From a virus, in IMG/VR virus record IMGVR_UViG_3300003860_000007, positions 1-64,000 of that record: a stretch of DNA of 64,000 nt; one strand, 5' to 3'. The translations under genes were made by a program, and so were the position numbers. Shown here in pieces: positions 2,069 through 56,240 of this stretch (positions are counted from its first letter, which is position 1; each line of letters starts with the position of its first letter). Under the pieces are notes generated by a model, which saw nothing but the letters and a program-made list of their open reading frames with translations, was not told the origin of the DNA and ran no database searches.

Positions 2069-2278
2069 TCAATTTAAACCTATAGCAGTGAAACCTATTA
2101 GATAAGTATTATACACTTTAAATATATGATATTCTTTTTTAACAGCTTGATATTGAGCATATGCTTCAAGAGATATAAATTCATTAATAGTTACTTTAGC
2201 CTGATCAAAACAATATAACAATACATGATGCTGTCCAAGAGCTGCTGCATAAGTTGCAAAAATTTCTTTCTTTTTCAT
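2069..2278 (-). CDS. Small hypothetical protein (probable start MKKKEIF; ATGA overlap with upstream gene)
   Basis: ORF track. The internal Met at codon 23 abuts the stop of 2275..2655, a typical translational-coupling overlap. Confidence 0.3.
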   Translation of the reverse strand: MKKKEIFATYAAALGQHHVLLYCFDQAKVTINEFISLEAYAQYQAVKKEYHIFKVYNTYLIGFTAIGLN

Positions 2279-2655
2279 AATAAATCTATCATTTCTTGAG
2301 TTAGTGTTCCTTGTAATAATGTACAATTTGCAGGAGACCCCCAATATTCAATTTTATCTACTTCATAAAATCCTATTCTTTTGAACATTGAAGCTAATTT
2401 TTTAGTTATAGAAGCTGCTTGTAATAAAGTTTCAGGAGGAAAATAAGAAAGTAACTGTTTTAACATTAATTTAAATTTTCCAGTTCCTCTATATTCTTTA
2501 AAAACTATACTTCCATTAAGAATAACCAAACCATTTGGATATTCTTTATTTATAATATAAAAATAGTCTATATTACCATATTGTGTTTCAAATATATGTG
2601 GCGTGAAGATCACCTCGTTATCATCGAGTGATTCTCTGACTACTTTAGTATCCAT
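2275..2655 (-). CDS. GNAT-family N-acetyltransferase-like protein
   Basis: FKEYRGTGKFKLMLKQLL resembles GNAT motif A (R/Q-x-x-G-x-G/A). Confidence 0.45.
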   Translation of the reverse strand: MDTKVVRESLDDNEVIFTPHIFETQYGNIDYFYIINKEYPNGLVILNGSIVFKEYRGTGKFKLMLKQLLSYFPPETLLQAASITKKLASMFKRIGFYEVDKIEYWGSPANCTLLQGTLTQEMIDLL

Positions 2656-2694
2656 CTTATATGGTTATATTAAAATTTATTTATGTTCTTAGAG

Positions 2695-2734
2695 AGTAAA
2701 TATAATAAAATTTTTTGATATAAAAAAATATTTT
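2695..2734 (-). promoter_or_regulatory. Copy of conserved promoter-like motif
   Basis: agtaaatataataaaattttttgatataaaaaaatatttt, about 40 nt 5' of the start of 2275..2655. Confidence 0.45.
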
Positions 2735-2745
2735 ATCAATTATTT

Positions 2746-2946
2746 TTATTCTTCTTTTATATAAGCGTTTTTTACTTTAACGTTTTTCTTTACAGCATTT
2801 ATAAACTGCCATGGATTTTCAATTCCATAAATTTCTTTTCTATAATTATTATCATATATTATGACTACACAATATGTAACAGGTTTAAGAGGCACATACC
2901 CATTAAAAAAGGATTTTGGATTATATGATTTAAAAAAATCACTCAT
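2746..2946 (-). CDS. Hypothetical small protein
   Basis: ORF track only. Confidence 0.3.
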   Translation of the reverse strand: MSDFFKSYNPKSFFNGYVPLKPVTYCVVIIYDNNYRKEIYGIENPWQFINAVKKNVKVKNAYIKEE

Positions 2947-3284
2947 TTATGTACTTTAAATCCTTTATCTTTTAGTAGTGCTTGTATACCAGATCTATAC
3001 CAACTAAACGCAGTTTGAGGATTACCTTTAACTGTAATATATTTTGTAATAAAATCTCCTATTTTTTGATCATATTTATGAGGAAACCAGTTATCAGCAG
3101 ATCTTATTATATCTTCAGGAATTTCACGTGTTTCTAAGATTTGATGTAAATGATCTACTATCCATTTATCTAATTCTAACCAAGTATTAAAATCGCGATG
3201 TACATAAAGTCCAATTCCCATATCTTCTATAGGATCCGATTCTTCTTTAAATACTTCATTTATATTTTCTCTAACTAATTTCAT
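2943..3284 (-). CDS. Member of conserved-N-terminal-module paralog family
   Basis: N-terminus MKLVRENINEVFKEESDPIEDMGIG. Confidence 0.6.
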   Translation of the reverse strand: MKLVRENINEVFKEESDPIEDMGIGLYVHRDFNTWLELDKWIVDHLHQILETREIPEDIIRSADNWFPHKYDQKIGDFITKYITVKGNPQTAFSWYRSGIQALLKDKGFKVHK

Positions 3285-4105
3285 TCGTAAAAAGGCATTT
3301 TAACTTTACAAATCTTTCTAATTTTCGCTTCAGTAATTCCATAATGCATAGACATACAAACAGTTCCATCTATTCTTTTTGGAAATCCTTTTAATGATCT
3401 TATATCGTTATCTGATGCATTAAAATCTTCTTTTACATATTCAGGAAATCCTATGCATGATTGTATAGTTCCTGGAACACAAAAATTTCCATACACATGG
3501 TGAAATTTAATATATTCAGGAAGTTTTTTATATTTTGGATAAGTATTTCTAACACAATATAAATTTACTTGACCTTGTACTGTAATGCTTAAATCTTTAT
3601 TTATAGTATAATCAATAATATTCATTTCTTTAAGCCAATCTTTAATCTTTTTAATGATTCCTATACCCATGTCTTGAATAGGATCAGTATCTTCAGCAAA
3701 TTTTTCATTAACTGATTCATTTATTTTTAATACATCAAAATATTCGTCCCAAACTTCTATAGGGGCAGATCCATATGTATAATAATATCCTCCCGAATCT
3801 ATATACCTTCTTGCTGTTATAGCGTTCTGCACATTATCTCCAAAATTAATTATTACTAAACTTAAAATATTTTTTTCTTTGTTTACTTCTTTAACTATAC
3901 TAGTATTGCCTTTACGAATTCTTGCGGTGACCTTTTCAATATTTTCGTCAAAAATAATATCATTGTTTTTTTGATATAAATCTTGTTTAACTATAATTAT
4001 ATCTCCTTTCTTTATTCTCGTAAATTTAGATCCAATACCTAAATCCCATATGGGATCAGTTCCTTGTTCAAATTTTTCATTTATATGTTCTTTTACTATT
4101 TTCAT
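3281..4105 (-). CDS. Member of conserved-N-terminal-module family (module present twice)
   Basis: N-terminal MKIVKEHINEKFEQGTDPIWDLGIG plus an internal second copy INESVNEKFAEDTDPIQDMGIG near aa 130. Confidence 0.6.
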   Translation of the reverse strand: MKIVKEHINEKFEQGTDPIWDLGIGSKFTRIKKGDIIIVKQDLYQKNNDIIFDENIEKVTARIRKGNTSIVKEVNKEKNILSLVIINFGDNVQNAITARRYIDSGGYYYTYGSAPIEVWDEYFDVLKINESVNEKFAEDTDPIQDMGIGIIKKIKDWLKEMNIIDYTINKDLSITVQGQVNLYCVRNTYPKYKKLPEYIKFHHVYGNFCVPGTIQSCIGFPEYVKEDFNASDNDIRSLKGFPKRIDGTVCMSMHYGITEAKIRKICKVKMPFYE

Positions 4106-4129
4106 ATATTCTATTTATCTAACAAAACA

Positions 4130-4159
4130 AAAGGCCAAGATTATAAAACCTTGGCCTTT
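4130..4159. terminator. Hairpin terminator-like (AAAGGCCAAG-loop-CTTGGCCTTT)
   Basis: Perfect 10-bp inverted repeat directly after gene 3281..4105. Confidence 0.5.
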
Positions 4160-4395
4160 CAATATCGTCTGAGAAAAATTAGGAAGCGTGTTTTTATAAG
4201 TTGTCTCTTATGCTCTAACCTACTTATCAATCTGTCCTGTACGTGATTAAAAGACGCCTAAGACACCGCACCTTCGGGAATTACGGCCCTTTCGGGAAAA
4301 TTGATGTTCAGAATCAAGAGCGCTGTCATAGTTTGAATTTATCTAGGTTGCCGAAATCCATCAGCTGGGTTTTAACTATGTTGCCATAGAAAAAA

Positions 4396-4426
4396 GGTTT
4401 CGAAGTACCGCTTGACCTTACTACAG
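4396..4426. repeat. Dispersed R repeat copy (GGTTTCGAAGTAcC-N-CCTTACTACAG)
   Basis: ggtttcgaagtaccgcttgaccttactacag. Confidence 0.5.
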
Positions 4427-4642
4427 ATGTTGTTTAAAATATAACTGAGAATTGTTGTTTTGTGCGTTTTAAGGAATTATCTTTCCGAAAATCGTTGCGG
4501 TGATTTTCAATACCGTGCTGTGTTGTGTAGGCCGAAGCCGCAAACCTTGAGCGTTATTTAACTGATTTAATTGGCATTGCTGCCGATCAATAGTATGACT
4601 CTTTCGAGCCAGAAGTTGCCGAGGCAACGTTTTGTTGGTTTC

Positions 4643-4674
4643 GAAGTATCACAAAAACTTCACTACAGTTTTAT
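4643..4674. repeat. Dispersed R repeat copy
   Basis: ggtttcgaagtatcacaaaaacttcactacag. Confidence 0.5.
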
Positions 4675-4785
4675 TATTAAAAATTTTAAAGAACTTTTAT
4701 ATACTATATATGGATTTAAAAAGTATTAGTTTTATAACTTAATGCATTTATTTCATTAATATATAAAATAAAAGTAGTAAGTTTT

Positions 4786-5361
4786 ATGATTAAAGAAGAA
4801 AAACATCATTATGTATATTTAACTACTAATCTTATCAATGGTAAACAATATATTGGTGATAGAACATGTAAATGTAATCCTGAAAATGATAAGTATTTAG
4901 GAAGTGGCAGACCATATTTTCAAAATGCTATTAAAGAATATGGAAAAAATAATTTTAGCAAACAAATACTTGAATGTTTTAATACAAGAGAAGAAGCTTT
5001 TAATGCCCAAGAAAAATATATTATACAATATAATACGCTTATTCCTAATGGATATAATATAAGTCCTAAAGGTGGCCATAATGTTAAAGAATGTTGGAGC
5101 AAAGAATCTAAAGAAAAATGCAGTAACACTAAAAAAGGAAAAATTGGATATTGGAAAAATAAAAAATTATCAGAAGAACATATTAAACATTTAAAAGAAA
5201 ATCATAAAGGAATGTTAGGAAAATATCATTCAGATGATTCTAAATTACAACTTAGTAATTCAATGAAAATCAAAAATAACGGAAAAGAAACAGAAGAACA
5301 TAAACAAAAAATAAAATTAAGTATGCAAAATTATTGGGCAAAAAAGAAATTAGTGCATTAA
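4786..5361 (+). CDS. GIY-YIG homing endonuclease with C-terminal NUMOD-like DNA-binding repeats
   Basis: HYVYLTTNLINGKQYIGD is a GIY...YIG motif. The C-terminal K/H-rich repeats GKIGYWKNKKLSEEHIKHLKENHKG match the Seg/I-TevI architecture. Confidence 0.85.
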   Translation: MIKEEKHHYVYLTTNLINGKQYIGDRTCKCNPENDKYLGSGRPYFQNAIKEYGKNNFSKQILECFNTREEAFNAQEKYIIQYNTLIPNGYNISPKGGHNVKECWSKESKEKCSNTKKGKIGYWKNKKLSEEHIKHLKENHKGMLGKYHSDDSKLQLSNSMKIKNNGKETEEHKQKIKLSMQNYWAKKKLVH

Positions 5362-5365
5362 TTTT

Positions 5366-5578
5366 CTATCTTGTAATTGCAACATCTCCAGTAGAACTTA
5401 TAACTACAACATAATGTGTATTATTCATATCTAGTTGATAAACTGAAGCTTTTCCATCTAACGTTGTAACTTTATAAGAAGATTGCGGGGGTGCTACAAC
5501 TTTAGTTGCAGCAAATACAGTTATAGCAAAAAGTAAAACAAGTGTTACTAAAACAATAATAAATTTTGGAGTTTTCAT
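5366..5578 (-). CDS. Small secreted or membrane-anchored protein
   Basis: N-terminal hydrophobic signal-like segment MKTPKFIIVLVTLVLLFAITVFAA. Confidence 0.35.
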   Translation of the reverse strand: MKTPKFIIVLVTLVLLFAITVFAATKVVAPPQSSYKVTTLDGKASVYQLDMNNTHYVVVISSTGDVAITR

Positions 5579-5579
5579 G

Positions 5580-6755
5580 TTATTTTATATTAAGTTGATA
5601 TTTACAAAATTCTATCATTTTTTCATCTCCTGTATGTTTTCCTTCTGAATCAGACAATTTAATACAAGGTACCCATTCATCGTCAGGATCAGGTTTTGCT
5701 GCAATTAGTTTAATAACCATATTAAGTGGGTTAACTCCAACATCATTAGATAAATTTGTGCCTATTCCCATTGCGCATTTAATTTCTTTATTACATGATT
5801 TTGTTAATTCAATTGCAAGATCAGGATTAAGATTATCTGAAAAAATTATAGTTTTATCATTGGGGTCAATTCCCATACTTTGATAATGTTTAATAACTTT
5901 TTCTGCAAAATGAAATGGATTTCCACTATCATGTCTTACACCATCAAAAAGCTTTGAGAATTTTTTTCCAAATGATTTAAAGAATGATTCTGTTGTAAAT
6001 GTATCTGTAAGAGCAATTCCAAGATCACCTTGATAAACATTTGACCAGTTTTCAAGAGCTAAAAAATTTGCTTGTTTAAATCCATATTTTGCAGCATGAA
6101 ACATAAACCATTCATGTGCATGAGTTCCTATTGGAGTAAGATTAAACATATGAGCAAAGTGTACATTAGAAGTTCCATTAAAATTATCTCTCATACTAAA
6201 TGCTAAATCTTCTACAACTTCTTTTTGATTTTCATATGAATATCTTCTACGAGTTCCAAATTCAGAAATCTTAACTCCATGATTATTAAATAATGCAGCT
6301 TTTTTTAGATTATTTTGTTCTCTTTCTACTCTTGAATTTATTTTTTCTCCCGTCATTTTAAAATACAATTCAGATATAAGAGCAAGAAGTGGAACTTCCC
6401 AAAGAATTGTACGATACCAGTAGCCTTCTACAGTTACTTGAAGTTCACTTCCATTTTGTATAACTCCAACTTCTGAAGGATTATATCTATATCCTGCCAA
6501 AAAATCAAAATACGCAGGATCGATATATTTACATTTAGTTTCAAAGAAGTGTTTTTCTGCAGTCAAAAGTTTAAGAGAAGACATATGAGAAATTTGTAAT
6601 CTTAGTTCTTCTGCAAATCCTTCTGGAAAATTTACTTTTGAACGAACTATTAATGCATATTTAACTTTTGCTCTTGGAAAAAGTTTTAACACTGCATTCA
6701 TCATACTAAATTTATAAAGATCGTTATCGAGTATTGATGTAATTATAGGTTCCAT
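5580..6755 (-). CDS. pncB: Nicotinate phosphoribosyltransferase (PncB-like); probable start at internal MEPIITS, ORF track gives 5580..6794
   Basis: Motifs DNDLYKFSM, EFGTRRR, GTSNVHFA, PIGTHAHEW, GVRHDSGNP and GIGTNL follow PncB/NAPRTase order. The start is trimmed to the Met adjacent to the upstream stop. Confidence 0.75.
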   Translation of the reverse strand: MEPIITSILDNDLYKFSMMNAVLKLFPRAKVKYALIVRSKVNFPEGFAEELRLQISHMSSLKLLTAEKHFFETKCKYIDPAYFDFLAGYRYNPSEVGVIQNGSELQVTVEGYWYRTILWEVPLLALISELYFKMTGEKINSRVEREQNNLKKAALFNNHGVKISEFGTRRRYSYENQKEVVEDLAFSMRDNFNGTSNVHFAHMFNLTPIGTHAHEWFMFHAAKYGFKQANFLALENWSNVYQGDLGIALTDTFTTESFFKSFGKKFSKLFDGVRHDSGNPFHFAEKVIKHYQSMGIDPNDKTIIFSDNLNPDLAIELTKSCNKEIKCAMGIGTNLSNDVGVNPLNMVIKLIAAKPDPDDEWVPCIKLSDSEGKHTGDEKMIEFCKYQLNIK

Positions 6756-6756
6756 T

Positions 6757-7224
6757 TTATATTTTTTTAGCATGAAAATAAGTGACTCCATCAATTTCTG
6801 TCATATCAAGAATTTTAAATTGATATGCACTAAATAATGCTGTTACAATTCTTGGTGTTAACGATCTATCAATTTTATTATCTAATAAATTAAATATAAC
6901 ATCTATAAGCTTTCCATATAATATATGAGTTTTTAAACTCAACATAGGTTTACTTGCTATAAATTTTCCATATACATAAGTATTCTTTTTTAAAAGATTA
7001 TTAAAATCTTTAATAGTATCGTCTAAATATTTAATTTCATTTAATTTTTTAAGATGAACAAGCGTTTTAATTCCTTTTAGTTCATCTTTATCATAGAAAT
7101 AAAAATGTTTTCCCGAAAGAAATAAAACTTTTTCATCTTTAACTTTTTTATGTTTTTGCACATATGCATGCATAACATGATCATATGTTTCATCTTTATA
7201 TTGAATATCATTAAAACTTTTCAT
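6757..7224 (-). CDS. Hypothetical protein
   Basis: ORF track only. Confidence 0.35.
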   Translation of the reverse strand: MKSFNDIQYKDETYDHVMHAYVQKHKKVKDEKVLFLSGKHFYFYDKDELKGIKTLVHLKKLNEIKYLDDTIKDFNNLLKKNTYVYGKFIASKPMLSLKTHILYGKLIDVIFNLLDNKIDRSLTPRIVTALFSAYQFKILDMTEIDGVTYFHAKKI

Positions 7225-7226
7225 TA

Positions 7227-7592
7227 TTATCTTATTCTAAATGTATCAAAAAATGTTCTAAACGATAGTCTTTTTTTCAAAATTATTGTTTCAGATACGT
7301 ATTGAGTATCATTTTCATAATATTTTGTTCCTTTAGGAATTATGAATTTAAATACAGTTAAGTAAGAATGAGCATCATCTGCCGCAATTTTAAAACTTTT
7401 ATATGAATGATAGCCTATGTTAATAGAAACTTGATCATAATAAAAAGTAGCATCAAATTCTACTTTTTTATTTAAAAGATTTTTAGTATATTGAAAATCT
7501 GTAAACCAAGATATTCCTCTTCTAGTCATAGTTTTATAACAAACTATATCTTTTTTTGCTGTTTTAAGAACATTTTTTCCAGTAAAACACAT
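7227..7592 (-). CDS. Hypothetical protein
   Basis: ORF track only. Confidence 0.35.
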   Translation of the reverse strand: MCFTGKNVLKTAKKDIVCYKTMTRRGISWFTDFQYTKNLLNKKVEFDATFYYDQVSINIGYHSYKSFKIAADDAHSYLTVFKFIIPKGTKYYENDTQYVSETIILKKRLSFRTFFDTFRIR

Positions 7593-7603
7593 ATTTTTAA
7601 TTT

Positions 7604-8508
7604 TTAAAAGATTAGACTTCCTTCATCATCCCAACGACAATATAATTTACTATTTTCTCTTAAGATAACATATTTAAGAGATTCGTTATTGCCTTTAGAC
7701 ATACAATCATCATCAATAACAACTGACATTCCATTTATAGAATAAACTTTTGCACCAAACGGAAGAGTATAAAGAAATTCACCATTTCCCGCCTTTTTAG
7801 GAAACATTCTCTCAGTTCCTATATATGCATTTTCTCCTGTAATATATTTCTTAATAGCACTTATAGTTTCGTCTTTACATGCATTTTCTTTAACCCATTC
7901 ACCTTCGTCATTTATAATAAATCCATCTTTATCTAACTCATAATATATTTTTCTAAAAGTAACTTGATTTGCACCAAGAAATTTACATCTAGCTATAATT
8001 TCTTTTGGAGTATGATTATCATATTCTTTTAACATATTAAGACTTAAACGAATATTAAATCCTCGTGATTTAAGTAAAGAAATTAATTCTGATAAGTTAA
8101 ATTTTAATTTTTTAGAAACTCCAATTATATTTAAATTATTTTCATCAGAAAAAATATCAGCAACAGAAAGACTTATCGTATTTACTTGAAGTTTTTGTAA
8201 TAATCAATATTATCATCATCTAATAATACTCCAGTAGTTTGTAACTCAACATTAGGAAATGGATAATTTAAATCTTTAAATAAAACAGATAAAACTTTTA
8301 AGAAATTTGTATTTTGCAAAGCTTCTCCTGTTCCTGTAAGAATACAAGTATTTACTCCATTCATTACAGCATACTTAATACGTTTTTCTATTTGAATATA
8401 CATAAAAGTATCTTCATATGGAGAATCATGCATTCTACTTACACAAAATGGACATTTATTTACACAACTTTTTGTAGGAACTACGATAGAAATTGTCTAA
8501 ATGTTCAT
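7604..8508 (-). CDS. Radical-SAM activase-like protein (PflA/NrdG-like), disrupted: in-frame TAG at codon 4 and a +1 frame change near 8185-8203
   Basis: Minus strand reads ATG AAC ATT TAG then ...TISIVVPTKSCVNKCPFCVSRMHDSPY... with a CxxxCxxC cluster. ILTGTGEALQNTNF resembles the GGEA/P motif of glycyl-radical activating enzymes. ORF 8182..8433 ends in TAA. The reading frame of ORF 7604..8035 is open upstream to 8203 (LLQKLQVNTISLSVADIF...). Confidence 0.5.
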
Positions 8509-8523
8509 ATATTAATTATTATT

Positions 8524-8564
8524 GTGTAAATATAATACTAATTTCTGAATTAAAAAAATATTTT
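8524..8564 (-). promoter_or_regulatory. Copy of conserved promoter-like motif
   Basis: gtgtaaatataatactaatttctgaattaaaaaaatatttt, just 5' of the radical-SAM gene start. Confidence 0.45.
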
Positions 8565-8574
8565 GCTATTTATT

Positions 8575-9225
8575 TTAAATATTTCCTATAAAAGAAAGTG
8601 TAAGAGAATCTACATAATAAACTTTAGCTTGTGTAAAAGCTTCTATAGTTTCTGACAAATCTGAATTTATTGATTTACACGCATCTTCAATAACATATGT
8701 ATTAAAACCTTCCATTGCTGCATCTATTGCAGTTTCTTTCACACAATAATCTAGAGCTAAACCACATACGTAAACTTCAACTACATTTCTTTCATTAAGA
8801 AAATCTTGAAGTTTTTTAGGAGCATCTGGATTTATTATTTTTGATCTATCAAATGCACTATAAACATGATTATTCCTTTCCATGCCTTTTTTAAAGATAT
8901 AAAAATCTTTTTTGCATTTTGATAAATTCAGATCTGGATGAAATGAAGCACCTAATGTATCTGCTACACAATGATCAGGCCAAAGAATATCTTTTTCTCC
9001 ATTTTCTCTTACGTAACTATCGTAAACAGAAGCTCCGGGATGTTGTGAGGCGAAAGCATCCATTTCTGGATCATGCCAATCTTGTGTAAATATAACTAAA
9101 TCAAATCTTTCAAGGAGATCATTAACTACGGGTACAATTTTGTCTCCATCTGGTACTGCTAGTGATCCTCCAGGGCAAAAATCTCTTTGCAAATCGATCA
9201 CTATTAATGCTTTTTTCTTTATCAT
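8575..9225 (-). CDS. pncA: Nicotinamidase / isochorismatase-family hydrolase (PncA-like)
   Basis: IVIDLQRDFCPGGSLAV and the later Cys-containing segment match the PncA/isochorismatase fold signature. Confidence 0.75.
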   Translation of the reverse strand: MIKKKALIVIDLQRDFCPGGSLAVPDGDKIVPVVNDLLERFDLVIFTQDWHDPEMDAFASQHPGASVYDSYVRENGEKDILWPDHCVADTLGASFHPDLNLSKCKKDFYIFKKGMERNNHVYSAFDRSKIINPDAPKKLQDFLNERNVVEVYVCGLALDYCVKETAIDAAMEGFNTYVIEDACKSINSDLSETIEAFTQAKVYYVDSLTLSFIGNI

Positions 9226-9381
9226 ATCATCTTATAGTTTGAATTTCATATTCATCATATCCATCTCTTGATTCATCTGAATCTATACATACAATTTCTA
9301 ATCCAAATGATTGTAAAGCGTCTGATATATTGTCTACAATTTCATCAGCTCTATCATCATAATCTACTCTAAATTTTGATT

Positions 9382-10317
9382 TCATAATTCTTCCTTTTTA
9401 TTTTTAACATATCTATTGTATATACTATTTTCATTTTCTATTATATCGTGTCTATATATATTGACAGGATTATTTCTTTTGAATTGAGATTTTAAATGTC
9501 GTTGAATGACAGAGTGTTGACGCATTTTATTAATTTCATCCATATATACTGCATTAACAGTTGGTGAATGTTTTTCAATAAAGTCTAAATATTCTTTAAG
9601 TATTCTATCAACTTCTTTATAACCATCTCTAGAATTTCCTGTCCAGTCTGGCATTATTTGTCCAAGATCTCCAAGATTTGTAACTCCAAGGCCATCAGTT
9701 GCAAGTGCAGTTATCGTATTTATTATTGTACTTCCTGCTTCATAATTTCCAGCATATTCATTCATAGTTAACCATTCTGCCATATCATATACTTCTGTTT
9801 TCCAAAGATTTTGTATCATACCATAATCACCTACATCACCATGAAGAGTCCAAAAACCAAGAAGAAATTCTGTATAATTATCAGTAGAAAGAACTATTCC
9901 ACGATGATATGAAGCTAAATCATACAAATAAATCATACGCAGTCTTGCTTTAAGATTTCCATTACGTATACGACTTGATGAACCTTCAGGATTAGGCGCA
10001 TGAAACAGCATATTAGATTCCATTTTGGAATACATAAAATTATATTCTTCTTCAACGCTATGCTCTAAGAATTTTGTACAAAATACTTTTCCTGTTAATT
10101 TGGCTCTTTCTAATTCTTCTGGTTGATTTGAACTTACTGGCAAACTTCTTCCTATAAGTGGAATATTTAATTCATCACAAACTGGTCTAGCAAGTGCTGC
10201 GCAAAGACAACTATCTATTCCACCTGAAATCCCTATAATAAGAGACTTTATATTATTGTTTGTAATATACAGACTTAATTCTTTTCGAATATTCGATACT
10301 GCTATTTGATAATTCAT
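9382..10317 (-). CDS. nadE: NH3-dependent NAD+ synthetase (NadE)
   Basis: PP-loop IGISGGIDSCL (SGGxDS); overall length and layout match NadE. Confidence 0.8.
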   Translation of the reverse strand: MNYQIAVSNIRKELSLYITNNNIKSLIIGISGGIDSCLCAALARPVCDELNIPLIGRSLPVSSNQPEELERAKLTGKVFCTKFLEHSVEEEYNFMYSKMESNMLFHAPNPEGSSSRIRNGNLKARLRMIYLYDLASYHRGIVLSTDNYTEFLLGFWTLHGDVGDYGMIQNLWKTEVYDMAEWLTMNEYAGNYEAGSTIINTITALATDGLGVTNLGDLGQIMPDWTGNSRDGYKEVDRILKEYLDFIEKHSPTVNAVYMDEINKMRQHSVIQRHLKSQFKRNNPVNIYRHDIIENENSIYNRYVKNKKEEL

Positions 10318-10325
10318 ATTATTTT

Positions 10326-10559
10326 TTATTTACGTATTATCCAAAATAATAACCAAAGTATAGTCGTGGGTATCCAAATTGCCCAAGTAAATATTGAAAA
10401 TTTTTCACTATTTTTTGCCCAACATAAAAATGTTAAAATAGCAGAAGTAGCACTCATTAAAAATAATACACCTGGATAAATAGGGATAAAAAGATTTCCT
10501 ACTATTAAAATTACAGTAGTAATTATTAAAGCCATTGTGAAATTTTCAAAAATTTTCAT
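10326..10559 (-). CDS. Small integral membrane protein
   Basis: Two hydrophobic helices. Confidence 0.35.
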   Translation of the reverse strand: MKIFENFTMALIITTVILIVGNLFIPIYPGVLFLMSATSAILTFLCWAKNSEKFSIFTWAIWIPTTILWLLFWIIRK

Positions 10560-10586
10560 ATTTATTTGTGTTTAATTATTAAAAAA

Positions 10587-11090
10587 TTATAAATCATTTT
10601 CTTTGTGTTTACACCAAGTTAGATATTCATCTTGATCTCTTATCCATTGTAATAATTCTGGATCAGTAACTTGTTCATGTTCTATTTTAGACCATAATTC
10701 GTTATCTCTTTCATTTTTATCATATTGATTAACGAAATATATTTTCTTAATTCCCGCTGCTATTATATTTTTCAAACATTCACTGCAAGGTTCAAGTATA
10801 CAATAAAGTTCTGCTTCTTCAATAGCAATTCCATGTTTGGCTGCAAAATTAATAGCATTCATTTCAGCATGAACCTCATATTTTTTAGACCAATTATGAT
10901 GGGCTTCTCTATCAGTTAGAAAATTATAATTAGGAAAATGATCACAACAATTTTCAAATCCTTTAGGTGTCCCATTTATTCCCGTGGAAATAATTCTTCT
11001 ATCATGAACAATAAGAGCTCCCACTTGTCTTGAGACACATTTAGATTCTTGTCCAAGTAAATATGCTGTTTTAAGAAAGAAATGTTTCAT
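10587..11090 (-). CDS. dCMP / cytidine deaminase (T4 Cd-like)
   Basis: HAEMNAI...PCSECLKNI is the zinc-binding H-A-E ... PC-x-x-C deaminase signature. Confidence 0.8.
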   Translation of the reverse strand: MKHFFLKTAYLLGQESKCVSRQVGALIVHDRRIISTGINGTPKGFENCCDHFPNYNFLTDREAHHNWSKKYEVHAEMNAINFAAKHGIAIEEAELYCILEPCSECLKNIIAAGIKKIYFVNQYDKNERDNELWSKIEHEQVTDPELLQWIRDQDEYLTWCKHKENDL

Positions 11091-11338
11091 TTGAATTCTG
11101 CTTCTAAATTTCTTAAATGTTCATTAGTATATTCGTATTCTATTTTATCTTCATAATCATAAAGATATATTTTATCTTTACATACTTTTGTTATTTTACA
11201 CTTAAAATTTTTCCAAGAATAACAATTATATAAATTATCTACAACTCCTGACCAATTATATTTTTTACCTTCAACTAGTTGAAAACCATCATGAGTTACA
11301 AATATCTTTTTGGGTTTTTTCTTAAATGGATTTTTCAT
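11087..11338 (-). CDS. Hypothetical protein
   Basis: ORF track only. Confidence 0.3.
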   Translation of the reverse strand: MKNPFKKKPKKIFVTHDGFQLVEGKKYNWSGVVDNLYNCYSWKNFKCKITKVCKDKIYLYDYEDKIEYEYTNEHLRNLEAEFK

Positions 11339-11538
11339 GGTCTTAAGCTTTTTTGTTCATTTTCTTCTCCATCGCCATCCATTAAAGTAGCAATCATGTT
11401 AATAGATTCAAGAATAGATTGTCTTAACATTTTAATCCAAGTTTCATAATCCTCTACTTTTGTGATATTAGGACGAATTGTTACGTTTTTTAGATTTTCA
11501 CAAACAGTTTTAAGCACTTTCTTTTCTAACTTTTCCAT
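11335..11538 (-). CDS. Hypothetical protein
   Basis: ORF track only. Confidence 0.3.
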   Translation of the reverse strand: MEKLEKKVLKTVCENLKNVTIRPNITKVEDYETWIKMLRQSILESINMIATLMDGDGEENEQKSLRP

Positions 11539-11656
11539 ATTGTTATTTGTTTATTATAATGCTAATATATAAAAAATATGAATACGATGTGATTTTTTGT
11601 TGTTAATTTTTTGTTAAAAAAGCAAAAGGGAGAATTTCTTCTCCCTTTCTATTCTA

Positions 11657-13360
11657 TTAGATTTCAATCTTGTTGATTTCATCTATGATTACCTGTGGGT
11701 TTATTTCAACCTGAGGAATCTTTTCGTAGATGTCTTGACCGTAGCCGTAAAGACGGAATACTCTGTTTCCACCCTTTATAGGAGCAGTTGCTGCATATCC
11801 GCATACGTTGATGATGTATACGTATGGTGTTCCGAACTTCTTGCAGTATCCTGCATAAGAATTTTCTACATTGCTGTATCCATCCTGTTCGTCAGAGATG
11901 ATAAGAATTCTATCGTACTGCTTGTTAGTTCTTTCAAACAACTTGAAGCAAGAACCGAAATCTGTACCGTGACCGCAACATCCGTTGTAGGACATGAACT
12001 TCTGCTTTAACGTATTGATTGAATCGATTGGGTTCCAACCTACAATCTGTTCAGCAGTAGAAGCGAAATGGTATACATCTCCACCAACACCCTTTGCAAA
12101 TGTTGCAGCTACAAGTGCAGCCTTGTCAGCTGGCTTCTTATTGATAGCCTTCTTAGGGTCACCATTAAGATAAATGCTGGAGTATCCACCTTTCATAGAA
12201 CCTGATGTATCGAATACAACTGCTGTTCTACCTTCTGGAAGCAAGTTCTGAAGGTTTGGAATTGACAATTCATATGCTGTTGAAAGTGCCTTTGCAACCT
12301 TAGCCAACTGTGTTCCGTTGAATTCAAGTGTCATCACTTCAAGAGCAATGTCAATCTGGTGTGGCCATACAAGAGACTTACGGATGAATTCCTTTTCAAC
12401 AAGTAAATCGCACGCCTTGTCAAGAAGAACAGTATCATTGGTCTTAAGAATGTTACGTACGTTACGAAGTAATGCAAGGTACCCAATCTTCTTAGTTTCA
12501 ATAAGTTCCTTGTAGTTTTCAGTCTTAGCTTCATTAAGTTCAACAGTTGCCTGTTCCTTAGTGATAGTTCCAGCCTTAACCTTTTCAGCTACAACCTTTC
12601 CTGCTTCAGTATTCTTATCTTCAACAGTGTTGAACTGCTTAAGAACGCCAAGAACAAGAGCCTTAAGAGTTGGAAGACCAACATTACCATTTTCAGGTGC
12701 ATCTAAAAGATATTCATCCTTTTCGAACTTAGTACCCTTAACAGCCTTCAAGTATTCAGCTTCTGATACAAATACTGTTCCATTTATAGGTGTTTCATGT
12801 GGGTGCACTAAGTTAACGATGTCAACAAGGCTTACACCACGTGACTTCATCTGGTACTTAGCTAACTGATATGCATCTGCATGTTCAATTGCATCCTTGA
12901 ATCCCTTCTTAATAGCGTTTGGAATTGGTGCTTCTACACCATTCTTAGCCTGGTAACATGCAAGAATTTCTGCCATGTCATCAAGACGATAAACGATACC
13001 TCCACGATTTTCCTTACGGTCTCTCTTAGAGAAGAATCTCTTAGCGATTTCAGAACCTGCAAGGTGAGGGATTAATTCTACTGCACCGTAATGAGTAACA
13101 GAACGCTGTCCAAATACTGTACGTGCATAGATAAGTGCCTTAGCTGCGAATAATGCATTCTTCTGCGCAACTCTATTGATAACTTCACGGAATCTCTTTT
13201 CACGTTCAGTTTCCTTTTCGTAATAAGTATTATCTAAACCAGTAGATAAAATACCAATTAATTCATGTTCTGGCTTCTGTGTTAAACCAGTTCCACCCTG
13301 TAAAGTTACAGTTTCCTTAACTTCTGGGTTGCTTACTCTCTTTTCATTGTACTTTGACAT
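11657..13360 (-). CDS. Ro60/Rsr-like TROVE-domain protein with C-terminal vWA/MIDAS domain
   Basis: N-terminal region (TGLDNTYY..., ALFAAKALIYARTVFGQRS) parallels the Ro60 TROVE region. C-terminal VVFDTSGSM is a DxSxS MIDAS motif. The gene is visibly more GC-rich than its neighbours and is preceded by AAAGGAGGT. Confidence 0.6.
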   Translation of the reverse strand: MSKYNEKRVSNPEVKETVTLQGGTGLTQKPEHELIGILSTGLDNTYYEKETEREKRFREVINRVAQKNALFAAKALIYARTVFGQRSVTHYGAVELIPHLAGSEIAKRFFSKRDRKENRGGIVYRLDDMAEILACYQAKNGVEAPIPNAIKKGFKDAIEHADAYQLAKYQMKSRGVSLVDIVNLVHPHETPINGTVFVSEAEYLKAVKGTKFEKDEYLLDAPENGNVGLPTLKALVLGVLKQFNTVEDKNTEAGKVVAEKVKAGTITKEQATVELNEAKTENYKELIETKKIGYLALLRNVRNILKTNDTVLLDKACDLLVEKEFIRKSLVWPHQIDIALEVMTLEFNGTQLAKVAKALSTAYELSIPNLQNLLPEGRTAVVFDTSGSMKGGYSSIYLNGDPKKAINKKPADKAALVAATFAKGVGGDVYHFASTAEQIVGWNPIDSINTLKQKFMSYNGCCGHGTDFGSCFKLFERTNKQYDRILIISDEQDGYSNVENSYAGYCKKFGTPYVYIINVCGYAATAPIKGGNRVFRLYGYGQDIYEKIPQVEINPQVIIDEINKIEI

Positions 13361-13404
13361 AGTGTACCTCCTTTTTTTACTATTAGTTTATACTAAAGAA
13401 TTAA

Positions 13405-13635
13405 TTAACATATTACTATAAAATGTTTTCTGTTTTCATTATCTTCACACTTAACAGGCATGAATCTTTTATCTTCATAATCTTCTCTTGCAACTTGCAT
13501 CCAACCATTTTCGGTTCCTGCTGGATTGTCTCTATTTGCTACCTCAAGTATTTCTTCATCAGTAGCGTCCCATTCTGCGCAAACTTGCATATAACATATG
13601 CCTATCATCGGCTGTGAAACTATTACTCTTTCCAT
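13405..13635 (-). CDS. Hypothetical acidic protein
   Basis: ORF track only; GC-richer like the Rsr gene. Confidence 0.3.
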   Translation of the reverse strand: MERVIVSQPMIGICYMQVCAEWDATDEEILEVANRDNPAGTENGWMQVAREDYEDKRFMPVKCEDNENRKHFIVIC

Positions 13636-13656
13636 ATTAAATTTTATTAAAAATAA

Positions 13657-13693
13657 AAAAGCCTGAGTAATTTTTTACGATTTCTCAGGCTTT
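13657..13693. terminator. Hairpin terminator-like (AAAGCCTGAG-loop-CTCAGGCTTT)
   Basis: 10-bp perfect inverted repeat with A and T runs. Confidence 0.5.
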
Positions 13694-13784
13694 GCAATAT
13701 AATCATAAAGTTCAAGTTATGAGCTATGCAAATAAAAGTTGAGAAATCTGAGAAGAGTTTAAATTGAAAATTCTAATAAAGATC

Positions 13785-13813
13785 GTTCGATGTAACTCTT
13801 TCTCTTACTACAA
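13785..13813. repeat. Dispersed R repeat copy
   Basis: gttcgatgtaactctttctcttactacaa. Confidence 0.45.
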
Positions 13814-13913
13814 TCAATTATATTATTATATATAAAGTCAAAAACTCTTTGTTTTTAGACTTAGTGTTAAAATTTTGTTAAAGATTTATTTATTAAAATT
13901 ATAGTGTAAATAT

Positions 13914-13956
13914 AATAAAAATTCTTGACAGAAAAAACTTTTTATGTTAAAATTTT
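13914..13956 (-). promoter_or_regulatory. Copy of conserved promoter-like motif
   Basis: gtgtaaatataataaaaattcttgacagaaaaaactttttatg. Confidence 0.45.
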
Positions 13957-13957
13957 G

Positions 13958-14551
13958 TTAAAATAATGAAATATTTTTGGTACGATGTAATAATCCATAT
14001 ATTATAAATGCATGACCCATCTTTTTATTTGGATCTGTAATAACATCCATAAGAGATTTATTCATCTTAACATGATTGTATCCATCAAAATCTATCAAAT
14101 AAATATCTCGTTTTTCAGTTTTATATAATTCTAAAAGTTGCTTATATGCTTCGCTTTGTAATAAAGCTCTTTTATAAATAGGAATGTAAATTTTAATTCT
14201 TGCTTGAATATATGATAATTTTTCTCCATCCCAATAACTATATAAAGGTTTTGCATCTCTACCCATAGGATATCTGTGAGCAAAATTATCATTCCATATT
14301 TTTTCAGCCCATTCAAAATATGCTGGAGAAGGATCGCCTTTTTCATCTACAAATTCTTTATATACCTTTGATGCTTGCCAGGCGTTTTCTACATTCTTTG
14401 CATAATATCCTTTATACAAATGCCCGCCCGGAAGAACAAAAGGAGATAAACCTTGAGTCCAATTTCCTGAACCTGCTCTTGAAGTTGTATTAATTACTAC
14501 TGCGCCCTCAGGTATCTCATACCTTTTAGCGTATGATTCTACGTATAACAT
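13958..14551 (-). CDS. NADAR-domain (YbiA-like) protein
   Basis: ENAWQASKVY and PMGRDAKPLYSYWDG parallel the EHYFQAQKF and ARMGRDRSKPL motifs of YbiA/NADAR. Confidence 0.5.
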   Translation of the reverse strand: MLYVESYAKRYEIPEGAVVINTTSRAGSGNWTQGLSPFVLPGGHLYKGYYAKNVENAWQASKVYKEFVDEKGDPSPAYFEWAEKIWNDNFAHRYPMGRDAKPLYSYWDGEKLSYIQARIKIYIPIYKRALLQSEAYKQLLELYKTEKRDIYLIDFDGYNHVKMNKSLMDVITDPNKKMGHAFIIYGLLHRTKNISLF

Positions 14552-14553
14552 AG

Positions 14554-14594
14554 TGTAAATATAATAAAAAATTCTGAATTGAAAATATTTATGT
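14554..14594 (-). promoter_or_regulatory. Copy of conserved promoter-like motif; ends at the ATG of 13958..14551
   Basis: gtgtaaatataataaaaaattctgaattgaaaatatttatg. Confidence 0.45.
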
Positions 14595-14742
14595 GTTAAA
14601 ATTTTGTTAAAATGATGAAACTAAACTTTATAGTTAATATATAAATTATATAACCTTGTACTTGGGGGTTTAGTGTTTGAAAGAACATTCGAGTTGGAGA
14701 AATACCAACGAATAAATTCTCAAATATAAAATAACATAAGGA

Positions 14743-15612
14743 ATGAAAATAAATTACTCAACTCAAAGGGTAACTGTGCCCACTGTATACGTGACCAAAG
14801 GTCGCCAAAGAGTAAAACAGTATGATAACACAATCTATCTTAAAAATGGAGACGAATTCGAAATAGAATTATTCAATCCATTACAATCTAAAGTTTTAGC
14901 GAAAATTGAACTCAACGGAAAGTATCTTGGTGCTGGAATAGTTTTACGTCCAGGTGAAAGAATGTTTCTTGAAAGATACATCGAAGAGTCCAGAAAATTC
15001 ATGTTTCAAACATATGAAGTTGATGGTGGTGATACTAATGTTCAAGAAGCTATTAAACTTAATGGAGTATTAGAGGTTAAATTTTATAAAGAAACTGCAC
15101 CTTCACAACCATATTACAGAAGTTCTACTATAACTTACACAACCAATCCAAGTTGGACAGTAACACCTACTTATACACATTATAATACAACAATAGGATA
15201 TTCTGGTGTAAAAAGTTCAAAAGGAGACATAGAAAATCCTGGTGTTGTTTTTGGTAATGCTACTACTTTATCATGTTCTGTGGATAATACAAAATCATAT
15301 GTAGATAGTATGCCCATTGGAGGTGAAGGATTAGGATTTGCGGGATGCGCTGATTTTTCAAGAGACTTTGCTCCACAAGAACAAACAATAGAAACTGGAA
15401 GAGTAGAAAAAGGTTCAAAATCAGATCAAGAATTTTCTACAGATAATACGCAATTTGATGTTTATTATAGTTGGAGAAGTGTTTGGAAAATTCTTCCAGA
15501 ATCTCAAAAGCCACTTATGTCTGAAGACTTAAAAGTATTTTGTACAAATTGTGGAGCTAAAAGAAAAAAATCTTCTCATAAATTTTGCCCAAACTGTGGC
15601 AACCAATTTTAA
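14743..15612 (+). CDS. Hypothetical protein with C-terminal zinc ribbon
   Basis: C-terminal CTNCGAKRKKSSHKFCPNCG; TAAGGA Shine-Dalgarno-like sequence upstream. Confidence 0.5.
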   Translation: MKINYSTQRVTVPTVYVTKGRQRVKQYDNTIYLKNGDEFEIELFNPLQSKVLAKIELNGKYLGAGIVLRPGERMFLERYIEESRKFMFQTYEVDGGDTNVQEAIKLNGVLEVKFYKETAPSQPYYRSSTITYTTNPSWTVTPTYTHYNTTIGYSGVKSSKGDIENPGVVFGNATTLSCSVDNTKSYVDSMPIGGEGLGFAGCADFSRDFAPQEQTIETGRVEKGSKSDQEFSTDNTQFDVYYSWRSVWKILPESQKPLMSEDLKVFCTNCGAKRKKSSHKFCPNCGNQF

Positions 15613-16381: not shown

Positions 16382-16458
16382 TGGTTGTCCCGGCAAGGCT
16401 CGAACTTGAAGTCTTCAGAATCAAAATCTGACGTGTTAACCGATTACACCACGGGACA
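16382..16458 (-). tRNA. tRNA-Gln (anticodon UUG), CCA encoded
   Basis: Acceptor TGTCCCG/CGGGACA, anticodon arm TCAGA-TTTTGAT-TCTGA, T-arm CAAG-TTCGAGC-CTTG, 3' ACCA. Confidence 0.65.
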
Positions 16459-17100
16459 ATTTATAAAATCTAATAATTTTTCTATTGTAAAATATTTCAA
16501 TTCATAATATGGTATTCTATATATTCTCCATCCTTTAGATCTTAAAAAATTATCTTTTTTCATATCATGTTCAACCCTTTTTAATCCGTTAGTAAAATGA
16601 GGTTCTCCATCATATTCAATAGCAATTTTTTGATCAACAAAAGCAAAATCTATAAAATAAGGATAAATTGGATATTCATTTATAATTGAATATTTTTCAT
16701 AAAAACTATTATCTTTAAGCATTTTATTTATTATGCTTTCTCCTTTACTCATCAATCTTTTATGTCTATTTGTAAAAGTTGAAATATTATTTTCATCAGA
16801 TAAATAGTCAAAACGTTTTTGTCTTAAAATTTCTTTAGATTGTTCGTTATGATGTTTATCCTTGAATGCGTTAGTTATGTTTCCTTCTTTATAATTTTGT
16901 TTTAATGTGTTTGATTGTTGTAAAATAGACGCATTATTATGTTTTGTTTTTCCTTTTGCCCAGTGTATTTTTTCACCAGTTTTCAATGTTTTTCCCGTAT
17001 CATGTGCTTTACCTTCTTCTGTATGAGTCCTCCAAATATGGCCTTTAATTCCATATTTATTATATTCTTTTTCGCAATAAGGACATTTCATACAATACAT
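16444..17100 (-). CDS. Zinc-finger + PD-(D/E)xK (DUF559/Vsr-like) nuclease-fold protein; putative homing endonuclease
   Basis: N-terminal CPYCEKEY...HIWRTH. C-terminal YFIDFAFVDQKIAIEYDGEPH...KDNFLRSKGWRIYRI is a D...E.D restriction-endonuclease-like core. Confidence 0.55.
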   Translation of the reverse strand: MYCMKCPYCEKEYNKYGIKGHIWRTHTEEGKAHDTGKTLKTGEKIHWAKGKTKHNNASILQQSNTLKQNYKEGNITNAFKDKHHNEQSKEILRQKRFDYLSDENNISTFTNRHKRLMSKGESIINKMLKDNSFYEKYSIINEYPIYPYFIDFAFVDQKIAIEYDGEPHFTNGLKRVEHDMKKDNFLRSKGWRIYRIPYYELKYFTIEKLLDFINCPVV

Positions 17101-25764: not shown

Positions 25765-25888
25765 ATTTTTATTTTATATATTCATATAGTAATTCTTTAA
25801 TTTACTACTTAATGTAACACTTGTTCATTACTACATTGCTGAGAAAGCCGAAAAGTGTGTAATTAGCTTTTAACTTTTCCCCCATTTG

Positions 25889-49761: not shown

Positions 49762-50513
49762 TATTAACAGAAGATCAATTACTGATGTTAAATAAATGTG
49801 TAGCTCAGGGGCCTATAGATAAGGCCTCTGTAGTTATATTTGGCAATGAGTTTGGAACTGCTGGTGGAGAAGGTGATACTGAAAGATGTGTTAATAGATT
49901 TATGCATGAATTTGCCACAAGAAAATTATTACAAATAGGTGAAGGATTTTCAACAATAGAAATAGACTCGCCACCTGTAAACTCAACTTTTCTTCAGTTC
50001 ATTTCAAGATTTATGTTAGCACGTAAATATAAAGATGAAAGATTTTTCGGTGAGTTGTCAGAAGAAGGAAAAGTAGTTCTTAATAAGTATATAATGTATG
50101 ACCTTTATAGAAAAGATAGTGCTATAATAAATCTCAGACCACTACCGCGTCACACAGAAAGGCATTGGGACTACTCTAATATAGATGAAAAGGAATATAA
50201 TAGGCAATACAATTTTAGCCTTAAGAAGCCTTTGAATGACAAGTATAAAGAGATAAGATTGACAGCTATGAAAGAAGCTTTTCAATTAGCCAAGAATGCT
50301 TTGATATTAGGATCAGGCGATAAAGATAATAAAAAGAAATTTTTTGAAACGATATATCCTGATATTAAATTTGAAGAATACATATTACTTGGAAATGTAA
50401 AGATATACGTATCAGAATTTCCTAAAATAATTCTTTCAAATTACTATGATCATAGAAGTGGTGTAGGATTAAATGGATTGAAAGAAATCTATAGATTTGT
50501 TAATACCCTTTAG
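49758..50513 (+). CDS. Hypothetical protein
   Basis: ORF track only. Confidence 0.35.
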   Translation: MILTEDQLLMLNKCVAQGPIDKASVVIFGNEFGTAGGEGDTERCVNRFMHEFATRKLLQIGEGFSTIEIDSPPVNSTFLQFISRFMLARKYKDERFFGELSEEGKVVLNKYIMYDLYRKDSAIINLRPLPRHTERHWDYSNIDEKEYNRQYNFSLKKPLNDKYKEIRLTAMKEAFQLAKNALILGSGDKDNKKKFFETIYPDIKFEEYILLGNVKIYVSEFPKIILSNYYDHRSGVGLNGLKEIYRFVNTL

Positions 50514-51021
50514 GTCTAGTATGAATATCACTTATACAATCGCAAACATCTAAAATATCGTCTCTTGTAAATTCACCAGGATTTTGTGCGCAATAAATTA
50601 CTCCACTAAGACTGACATGACCTGGCATCTTTTTTCTTGGAGGATGTACTATTTCTGGAAAATATTTTAATGATGATATTTTATTGTCTTGAAAAGAAAA
50701 ATATCCATATATTTCTCTTGGACATCCTTTTAATGATGTCATATCATTACCCATTATATTAAATTCACCATCTATCACTCCAAATTTTATATAATAGGGG
50801 AAATTTCCTAAATGCTGATTACGTAAATCTACACTACCATATACATCTATAGTTCCATCTATATTGAATGTATATTGATTTTCTGTGAAACCGTGTCTTT
50901 CAAAAAATGCAGTATTTTTACCTATGTATTTATCTAACCATCTTTTTTGAATAGTTTTTAATCCAATTCCTAAATCATGAATTGGATCGCTTTCTTCTGA
51001 AAACCTTTCAGTAATATATTC
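50500..51021 (-). CDS. Member of conserved-N-terminal-module family; probable TTG start (ORF track gives 50500..51069)
   Basis: TTG AAA TTA GTA CGA GAA TAT gives (M)KLVREYITERFSEESDPIHDLGIG directly after the stop of 51033..51470. The ATG-initiated extension overlaps the upstream gene. Confidence 0.5.
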   Translation of the reverse strand, partial: EYITERFSEESDPIHDLGIGLKTIQKRWLDKYIGKNTAFFERHGFTENQYTFNIDGTIDVYGSVDLRNQHLGNFPYYIKFGVIDGEFNIMGNDMTSLKGCPREIYGYFSFQDNKISSLKYFPEIVHPPRKKMPGHVSLSGVIYCAQNPGEFTRDDILDVCDCISDIHTRPKGY

Positions 51022-51032
51022 TCGTACTAATT

Positions 51033-51470
51033 TCAAGTTTTTTCTATAATTTTGAAGTATTCTGCCCAAGTAGAATACTTTTCGTCGCTATATAATATCG
51101 CTAATCCTAAATAATTTTTTTCTAAATTATAGCCTTTTTTTATTTCTTTTTTACAATAATTAAAAAACTCATTATCTCCAAAAAATGCTATATATAATTC
51201 TAGTGATTTAGAATGTTTTTTACTTTTAACAACTACTCCTTTTATATCTTCTTTTGCCCACGGAAGGAAATTTTTTCCAAGAGTATCAGATGGTGAAAAA
51301 TACATTTTTTTAAGATTTGAGGGTGTATCTGCATTATAAAAATCTTTTTTAACTTTTATTGTATCTCCCCTTTTAATATTGCCGAATCCCATCGTTCCTA
51401 TACCCATATCAGCAATAGGGTCGCTTTCTTCTGTAAATTTCTCGTTAATATTTTCTCGTACTATGCGCAT
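51033..51470 (-). CDS. Member of conserved-N-terminal-module family
   Basis: MRIVRENINEKFTEESDPIADMGIG. Confidence 0.6.
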   Translation of the reverse strand: MRIVRENINEKFTEESDPIADMGIGTMGFGNIKRGDTIKVKKDFYNADTPSNLKKMYFSPSDTLGKNFLPWAKEDIKGVVVKSKKHSKSLELYIAFFGDNEFFNYCKKEIKKGYNLEKNYLGLAILYSDEKYSTWAEYFKIIEKT

Positions 51471-51532
51471 CTTCTTTTTTATTTTATTTATTCCAGATTA
51501 GAATGAATAAATAAATAAAATAAATCGCGAAT

Positions 51533-56193: not shown

Positions 56194-56240
56194 AATAAAA
56201 TAAATTCAAAAGTTATACTTTTAAGGACGAGACAATCTAT

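Follow-up and report, generated by a model that had tools for sequence, protein, structure and literature searches.

Amber (TAG) to glutamine reassignment, the "code 15" recoding, has been described in Lak, crAss-like and other gut phages together with phage-encoded suppressor tRNAs (bioRxiv 10.1101/2021.08.26.457843, Borges et al.; PMC9523058, Peters et al.). In the published recoded phages TAG is widespread, structural and lysis genes are recoded, and a regulatory switch has been proposed (bioRxiv 10.1101/2021.08.26.457843; PMC9523058). Here we analyze a 64,000-nucleotide (nt) stretch of viral DNA (IMG/VR record IMGVR_UViG_3300003860_000007, positions 1 to 64,000; hereafter the window), in which a gene for a radical S-adenosylmethionine (radical-SAM) enzyme carries TAG as its fourth codon and is split further downstream by a change of reading frame. 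The reading we favor, with moderate confidence, takes the two features jointly: codon 4 would be a suppressor-dependent glutamine codon, and a recent 1-nt deletion would have inactivated the gene.

The locus resembles the code 15 phages in that the phage encodes a tRNA with the anticodon CUA (tRNA-CUA), the in-frame TAG occupies a Gln position, and expression would depend on the phage's own suppressor. It differs from them in extent, as in-frame TAG is confined in the 64 kb to codon 3 of one non-structural gene and codon 4 of another, coding density does not speak for code 15, and TAG still terminates genes. Known phage amber recoding is genome- or module-wide and is thought to time late genes; the form found in the window is much sparser. 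The TAG is a sparse, start-proximal variant of that recoding, a placement that goes unmentioned in a published survey of recoded phages, and the frame break is an ordinary one.

Two overlapping reading frames form one radical-SAM gene

The gene is defined by the following features:

8506..8508, minus strand: start ATG of the radical-SAM gene; all homologues begin MNIQ/MKIQ at the equivalent ATG
8497..8499, minus strand: in-frame TAG at codon 4, next base A, read directly
8443..8466, minus strand: CxxxCxxC motif CVNKCPFC of the [4Fe-4S]/SAM cluster, codons 15-22; C15, C19 and C22 are family-invariant
8323..8337, minus strand: TGTGE, the GGE-type SAM-binding motif, codons 58-62; T58, G59, G61 and E62 are invariant
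8182..8508, minus strand: frame A, N-terminal part, 108 codons, ending at TAA 8184-8182; alone 191 bits against the family hidden Markov model (HMM)
7604..8203, minus strand: frame B, C-terminal part, 199 codons plus TAA 7606-7604; first canonical start ATG 8035; alone 209 bits

The gene opens ATG AAC ATT TAG ACA ATT TCT ATC GTA GTT CCT ACA AAA AGT TGT GTA AAT AAA TGT CCA TTT TGT. An earlier reading of the letters alone (the sequence-only reading) had described the ATG-AAC-ATT-TAG start, with the Cys cluster and a GGEA-like motif downstream of the TAG, and all of these are directly visible (ATG 8508-8506, TAG 8499-8497, CVNKCPFC 8466-8443, TGTGEA 8337-8320). An in-frame TAA two codons 5' leaves ATG 8508 as the only upstream ATG, as had been claimed; the next canonical start after the TAG, ATG 8433, lies past the Cys motif. 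The same reading correctly placed the end of the N-terminal open reading frame (ORF) at TAA 8182-8184 and found the C-terminal ORF open to 8203, behind a TGA at 8206-8204; the overlap that it gave as about 20 nt is 22 nt. Its "+1" frame change needs correcting. Frame B lies at -1 relative to frame A (equivalently +2), one base being missing, with (8508-8035) mod 3 = 2. This geometry fits a 1-nt deletion, and a +1 ribosomal shift would leave the two parts unjoined.

We joined the two frames with the TAG read as Gln, which yields a fused product of 301 amino acids (aa). It scored 487-492 bits against an HMM built from 36 homologues, the halves alone reaching 191 and 209 bits. A search of 5.8 billion proteins returned 740 homologues of the fused product, the best at 69% identity; those among the matches listed are ~280-320 aa long, cover the whole query and are uninterrupted. 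The homologues begin MNIQTISIVVPTKGCVNKCPFCVSRMH and end GSLIF, and the window gene has the same ends. Predicted peptide stretches of the fused product are MNIQTISIVVPTK, with the junction reading NIDLLQK or NIDYYKNLQ. The Pfam Radical_SAM model (PF04055) matched at 46.8 bits against a cut-off of 29.5, aligning residues 9-170 with model positions 1-161 of 166. Because this match runs unbroken across the junction, the homologues are full-length and the fused product scores as it does, the ORFs 8508..8182 and 8203..7604 (minus strand) are one radical-SAM gene of ~301 aa. The public ORF calls for it in this genome, on record from a 405,016-bp contig, are fragments of 83 and 143 aa; standard gene callers truncate or split both this gene and the PTH2 gene described below.

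The amber codon stands at a near-invariant glutamine

Codon 4 aligns with Gln in 22/23 homologues. All 13 orthologous loci with DNA have a normal start (ATG-AAx-ATx or close variants), no internal stop and a single frame; a normal start in an orthologue is one half of what the sequence-only reading had named as refuting it. Their codon 4 is CAA in 12/13, near-duplicates counted, with GCT (Ala) in the near-duplicate pair L001/L002. Two homologues with short N-termini (P0118 and P0109) were considered as additional TAG-gated copies and rejected, as both read ATG AAT/AAC ATT CAA in frame and merely have late start calls.

The radical-SAM gene contains 23 codons one step from TAG (14 TAT, 3 AAG, 3 GAG, 2 TGG and 1 TTG), and none of these is a Gln codon; CAA is used at each of its six remaining Gln positions. 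The chance that a random TAG lands on a Gln site is therefore at most ~1/24, while a TAG that means Gln would land there every time. Judged by this codon context, a random nonsense mutation at codon 4 appears unlikely. Most likely, the amber-suppressor tRNA that the phage itself encodes reads the TAG, most probably as Gln.

A suppressor tRNA lies near a second gene with an early TAG

Two further features of the window bear on how the TAG is read:

18769..18842, minus strand: amber-suppressor tRNA (anticodon CUA), which presumably reads the TAG; found by ARAGORN and Rfam
19367..19717, minus strand: PTH2-type peptidyl-tRNA hydrolase gene, opening ATG AAA TAG (TAG 19711-19709); Pfam PF01981

The tRNA-CUA is encoded 10 kb from the radical-SAM gene on the same strand, and the Rfam tRNA model matches it at 59.8 bits (gathering score 29). 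We infer that it is charged and reads the radical-SAM TAG, and likewise which amino acid it would insert. Assigning its isotype by similarity to the other tRNAs of the window was uninformative, the best score going to tRNA-Leu(UAA).

The sequence-only reading had counted the radical-SAM TAG as the second ATG-proximal TAG in the window, arranged as in the PTH2 gene, and this is borne out: ATG 19717-19715 is followed by AAA and by TAG 19711-19709. The PTH2 gene reads ATG AAA TAG ATA CAC AAA TTA ATT GTT; Pfam PTH2 matches its product from residue 6 (E=1e-9), and no ATG, GTG or TTG occurs within 45 codons after the TAG. In a comparison of related viral PTH2 loci (L017-L031; 41-80% identity), 14/15 carry an in-frame TAG after the ATG and ahead of the conserved KL.VITRRDL strand, at codon 3 in seven loci and elsewhere at codon 5, 7, 9 or 10, or at codons 6 and 13 together. 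The TAG is invariably followed by A or G, and the codon that comes next varies (ATT, ACA, ACT, GTA, AGC, GTT), so that there is no conserved alternative start. Of 13 PTH2 loci scanned, 12 have a tRNA-CUA within ~2 kb on the PTH2 strand, in four loci directly upstream of PTH2; the thirteenth locus ends ~70 nt after the gene. The PTH2 TAG belongs to an N-terminal tail that is not conserved, and it does not indicate which amino acid is inserted.

Since the early TAG is kept in PTH2 and a tRNA-CUA lies nearby, TAG is very probably read as a sense codon in this phage. Production of the conserved PTH2 requires that TAG be read, which is separate evidence for amber suppression in this phage group. 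Seen across the compared loci, the pattern resembles a conserved module of a suppressor tRNA and an amber-gated PTH2. Our literature search found no description of such an arrangement, and PTH2 is absent from the published survey of recoded phages. One of the related contigs (L019) has a second PTH2-like gene at 2204-2986 (plus strand), a 260-aa ORF with a TAG directly before the conserved IGSKLIVITRRDL strand; it opens ATG TAG or, counted from an upstream ATG, has the TAG at codon 14.

We also scanned the window for an ATG followed within 12 codons by a stop and then by at least 70 open codons with no ATG, GTG or TTG in the first 12. Among real genes, only the radical-SAM gene and PTH2 were recovered, both with TAG. 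The TAA matches and the remaining TAG matches lie antisense to genes, over tRNA genes or before an obvious start, and the window has no TGA match. Two random TAGs in genes of 301 and 116 codons would both fall within the first four codons with a probability of ~3e-4.

The frame break looks like a recent mutation

The junction between the two frames is described by two features:

8185..8205, minus strand: frame junction (-1), an interval one nucleotide shorter than its counterpart in every orthologue; seven junctions at 487-492 bits
8191..8197, minus strand: C AAA AAC, the sole near-slippery sequence in the overlap, non-canonical, likewise read directly

Around the junction the homologues read N-I-x-x-L-K-x-L-G-V-N-T-I-S-L-S, and the window supplies N-I-D in frame A and L-L-Q-K-L-Q-V-N-T-I-S-L-S in frame B. 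Adding one base anywhere in 8185-8205 gives a protein of homologue length. As seven possible junctions score within 5 bits of one another, the deletion can be placed only to this interval; the best, NID-LLQKLQVNT, corresponds to the loss of a T from GAT-TTA-TTA. Among positions conserved at >=95%, 40/40 before the break (the TAG codon apart) and 59/59 after it are intact. With 99/99 positions kept, the deletion would be recent rather than part of a long decay, and the "decaying" pseudogene proposed by the sequence-only reading is not supported. Taken together with the lack of frameshift signals set out below, the break looks from its sequence like a recent mutation and not like programmed recoding.

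The window yielded no further gene with a broken frame. A second candidate at 51497..50500 (minus strand) turned out to be a pair of paralogous genes, the downstream one apparently starting at a TTG, and the remaining candidates were antisense noise. The two paralogues (50500-51497) have in common the N-terminal motif (V/I)RE.I.E.F(S/T)EESDPI.D.GIG.

A possible course of events

Under the favored reading, a conserved phage radical-SAM gene would carry an amber codon in place of a conserved Gln, and the phage tRNA-CUA would read it, most probably as Gln. Synthesis of the enzyme would thereby depend on the suppressor tRNA, and PTH2, beside the tRNA, would follow the same design. One nucleotide would have been lost in 8205-8185, and ribosomes that pass the TAG would stop at TAA 8184-8182, after 107 residues. 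The break would be a loss of function, with full-length protein arising at most in traces, through rare -1 slippage on C AAA AAC. The enzyme, whose gene stands between PncA and NAPRTase in all relatives, is probably missing from this genome.

A wider proposal, which we advance tentatively and would sooner question than assert, is that in standard-code huge phages a single amber in the first codons of selected genes may serve as a translational gate opened by the phage's own tRNA-CUA. We hold with the same reserve that PTH2 and its neighboring suppressor tRNA may be the conserved core of such a system, the radical-SAM gene being a lineage-specific recruit later knocked out by deletion. Were a gate of this kind real, a tRNA-CUA and a start-proximal TAG would make a simple switch, in which an unsuppressed ribosome wastes merely a peptide of 2-12 residues. 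Suppressor tRNAs in "standard-code" phages would have a function, and a peptidyl-tRNA hydrolase would be tied to a code switch. The conserved amber-gated PTH2 beside the suppressor tRNA is the more interesting lead.

Counter-evidence and alternative explanations

Several observations weigh against the reading we favor. The window is otherwise standard-coded and shows no sign of general TAG reassignment. ORF coverage of the 64 kb is 0.757 under code 11, 0.789 under code 15 (TAG sense) and 0.790 under code 4 (TGA sense, used as a control); the gain under code 15 is equaled by the control, so there is no specific rise in density. With 228 Gln codons between them, two tail-fiber-like ORFs (1298 and 2304 aa) are free of TAG, and TAG serves as terminator in 2/39 long ORFs as well as in small genes abutting tRNAs. 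Among the orthologues seen, only the one in this genome has TAG at codon 4, so the TAG shows no conservation, and a gene with both a stop codon and a frameshift has the look of a dead one. The tRNA-CUA is unlike either tRNA-Gln of the phage, so that Gln is no more than the probable amino acid inserted. Finally, the two assemblies of the locus probably derive from the same reads, and population heterogeneity at the break is possible.

The alternative that survives best, though we consider it unlikely, is a plain pseudogene, in which the TAG and the 1-nt deletion are both inactivating, the TAG is untranslated and an accessory gene is being lost. Both lesions are unique to this genome, the 13 orthologous loci being intact; the standard coding of the rest of the window and the use of TAG as terminator suit this explanation too, and by a rough estimate the chance of a second lesion arising before any conserved site changes is ~0.1-0.4. 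It has to contend, however, with a TAG placed exactly on the near-invariant Gln when no other Gln codon of the gene is one step from TAG, with the suppressor tRNA in the window, with a conserved PTH2 that needs TAG to be read, and with the absence of any changed conserved residue.

Less likely again is a flawed consensus, in which the TAG is a genuine sense codon, the missing base is an artifact of sequencing, assembly or strain mixture, and the enzyme is full-length. Conserved residues are intact on both sides of the break, one base in 8185-8205 restores the score of 487-492 bits, and short T runs and an A5 run are present at the site. These homopolymers, however, are of 2-5 nt and not error-prone in short reads, no other gene in the 64 kb is seen to be broken, and over 4.4 kb the Logan contigs of run SRR5272498 are identical at every base to the 405-kb contig. 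The Logan contigs show zero mismatches to the window over 4093-8553 and 8535-15225. A search for near-identical genomes with a DNA pattern that matched the window returned nothing in metagenome or viral contigs, and the only other copies of the locus are the identical Logan contigs of the same run. We infer that the deletion is present in the phage and not in the reads alone.

The "doubly recoded" gene offered by the sequence-only reading, in which the suppressor tRNA reads the TAG and a programmed -1 shift occurs on C AAA AAC 8197-8191 (...NIDYYKN-LQVNTISLS...), is very unlikely as a whole. Its first half remains a live explanation, given the tRNA-CUA and the near-invariant Gln; the frameshift half is not supported. 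The ORFs do overlap at -1 with an A-rich run in the 22-nt overlap, as in the programmed frameshifting of dnaX, insertion sequence (IS) elements and the phage tail chaperone G/GT, and -1 is the shift that is needed. The product would be of homologue length and score 489 bits (junction j4), would read KNL as in the closest homologue (P0001), and neither half has decayed. The break differs from those systems, however, in lacking a heptamer, a stimulatory structure and conservation. The overlap contains no canonical X XXY YYZ heptamer, only C AAA AAC, in which A AAC is a good A-site slip sequence but the first base of the P-site codon is unable to re-pair (AAA to CAA). Over the 126 nt at 8215-8090, the minimum free energy is -11 kcal/mol against a shuffle mean of -13.45 kcal/mol (z=+0.84), with no stem-loop predicted. 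The two-frame arrangement occurs in 0/13 orthologous loci, all of which are single ORFs, and the shifted product would swap a 100% conserved Leu for Tyr. A translational bypass from AAG-TAA to a downstream AAG, considered by eye, was rejected, as it lands in the third frame and skips conserved residues.

Mini-ORFs are known translational regulators, and ATT and ATC codons follow the TAG, but initiation at a non-canonical start there (e.g., ATT 8493-8491), with ATG-AAC-ATT-TAG as a three-codon upstream mini-ORF, is highly improbable, given that M1 and I3 before the TAG are family-invariant and kept in the window gene and that the codons after the PTH2 TAG vary.

Fold and family of the radical-SAM protein

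We obtained an AlphaFold2 model of the closest homologue, which is 69% identical to the window protein and not that protein itself (predicted local distance difference test 85, predicted template-modeling score 0.86). The model has the partial TIM-barrel fold of the radical-SAM superfamily. In a Foldseek search with it the top matches were all radical-SAM proteins, the best being MoaA (2fb2) and viperins (9dfw, 5vsl, 6q2p), with template-modeling (TM) scores of 0.59-0.65 and probability 1.0. MoaA (GTP 3',8-cyclase) and viperin (CTP to ddhCTP) resemble the phage family in having an N-terminal CxxxCxxC and a GGE-type motif, in running to ~300 aa and in carrying a beta extension at the C-terminus; they differ from it in sequence, identity being only ~15%. 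Unlike MoaA, the phage family is without the three-Cys auxiliary [4Fe-4S] site, its only invariant Cys outside the SAM cluster being C211 and C269. For viperin, the fold is similar (TM ~0.6), with 13-17% identity, and no viperin model is among the NCBIfam matches. No NCBIfam model reached its cut-off (best 35.6 bits vs 380; MoaA equivalog NF001199, 19.8 bits vs 231), a PHROGs search of the radical-SAM protein gave no family, and the family profile found nothing significant among the sequences of solved structures. No relatives were found in 185,579 bacterial and archaeal genomes. The family is a phage-restricted one with, going by the homologue model, a MoaA/viperin-like fold.

The sequence-only reading had called the protein a radical-SAM activase, of the PflA, NrdG or QueE subtype. 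The superfamily stands, and these activases belong to it and carry the same cluster motif; annotation commonly calls them "organic radical activating enzyme", and two homologues are so labeled. The activase identity, however, is not supported. None of the three families gave an NCBIfam match at E<=0.1 and none is among the top 50 PDB matches of the homologue model, with PflA-like and QueE-like proteins appearing only at ranks 23 and 48 of a viral library. The phage protein is also larger and has a distinct conserved C-terminal domain.

Genomic neighborhood

The gene order dCMP deaminase, NadE, PncA, radical-SAM gene, NAPRTase is common to the window and 12 related viral contigs, and at a more distant locus (41% identity) NAPRTase still adjoins the radical-SAM gene. 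The Preiss-Handler nicotinamide adenine dinucleotide (NAD) salvage block (NadE, PncA, radical-SAM gene, NAPRTase) occupies 5580-10317 of the window (minus strand) and recurs in at least 12 huge-phage contigs (L001-L014, L032). In L032 it is followed by a further PTH2 gene, of 151 aa and with a normal start, and by a gene for a Macro-domain protein. From the NAD-salvage setting, the MoaA/viperin-like enzyme may act on a substrate related to nucleotides or NAD. Phage GenBank records gave only weak matches, to the NadE part, and the best of them (LR756500.1) has no radical-SAM orthologue near NadE. The 66-nt spacer upstream of the radical-SAM ATG (8509-8574, minus strand) contains no Shine-Dalgarno-like sequence. 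About 25 nt before the ATG it contains TATATTTAC, reminiscent of what we take to be the Bacteroidota -7 promoter motif TAnnTTTG.

An Rfam scan of the window returned tRNAs only. Sixteen tRNA genes lie between 735 and 25971, all on the minus strand. Between them are small zinc-finger and DUF559/MTES_1575 endonuclease-like ORFs (16444-17100, 20723-21139, 23406-24221 and 25096-25773), some of which end in TAG at or inside the adjacent tRNA gene. A 576-aa ORF at 11657-13387 (minus strand), with a faint TROVE (Ro60-like) Pfam match on record and 49-57% identity to counterparts in L005-L007, may be a Ro-like RNA-binding protein adjoining this tRNA-rich region. On the plus strand, the two tail-fiber/adhesin-like ORFs are a 1298-aa protein with collagen repeats and a Peptidase_S74 chaperone domain (51524-55420) and a 2304-aa protein with PKD and DUF285 repeats (56199-63113), each free of in-frame TAG.

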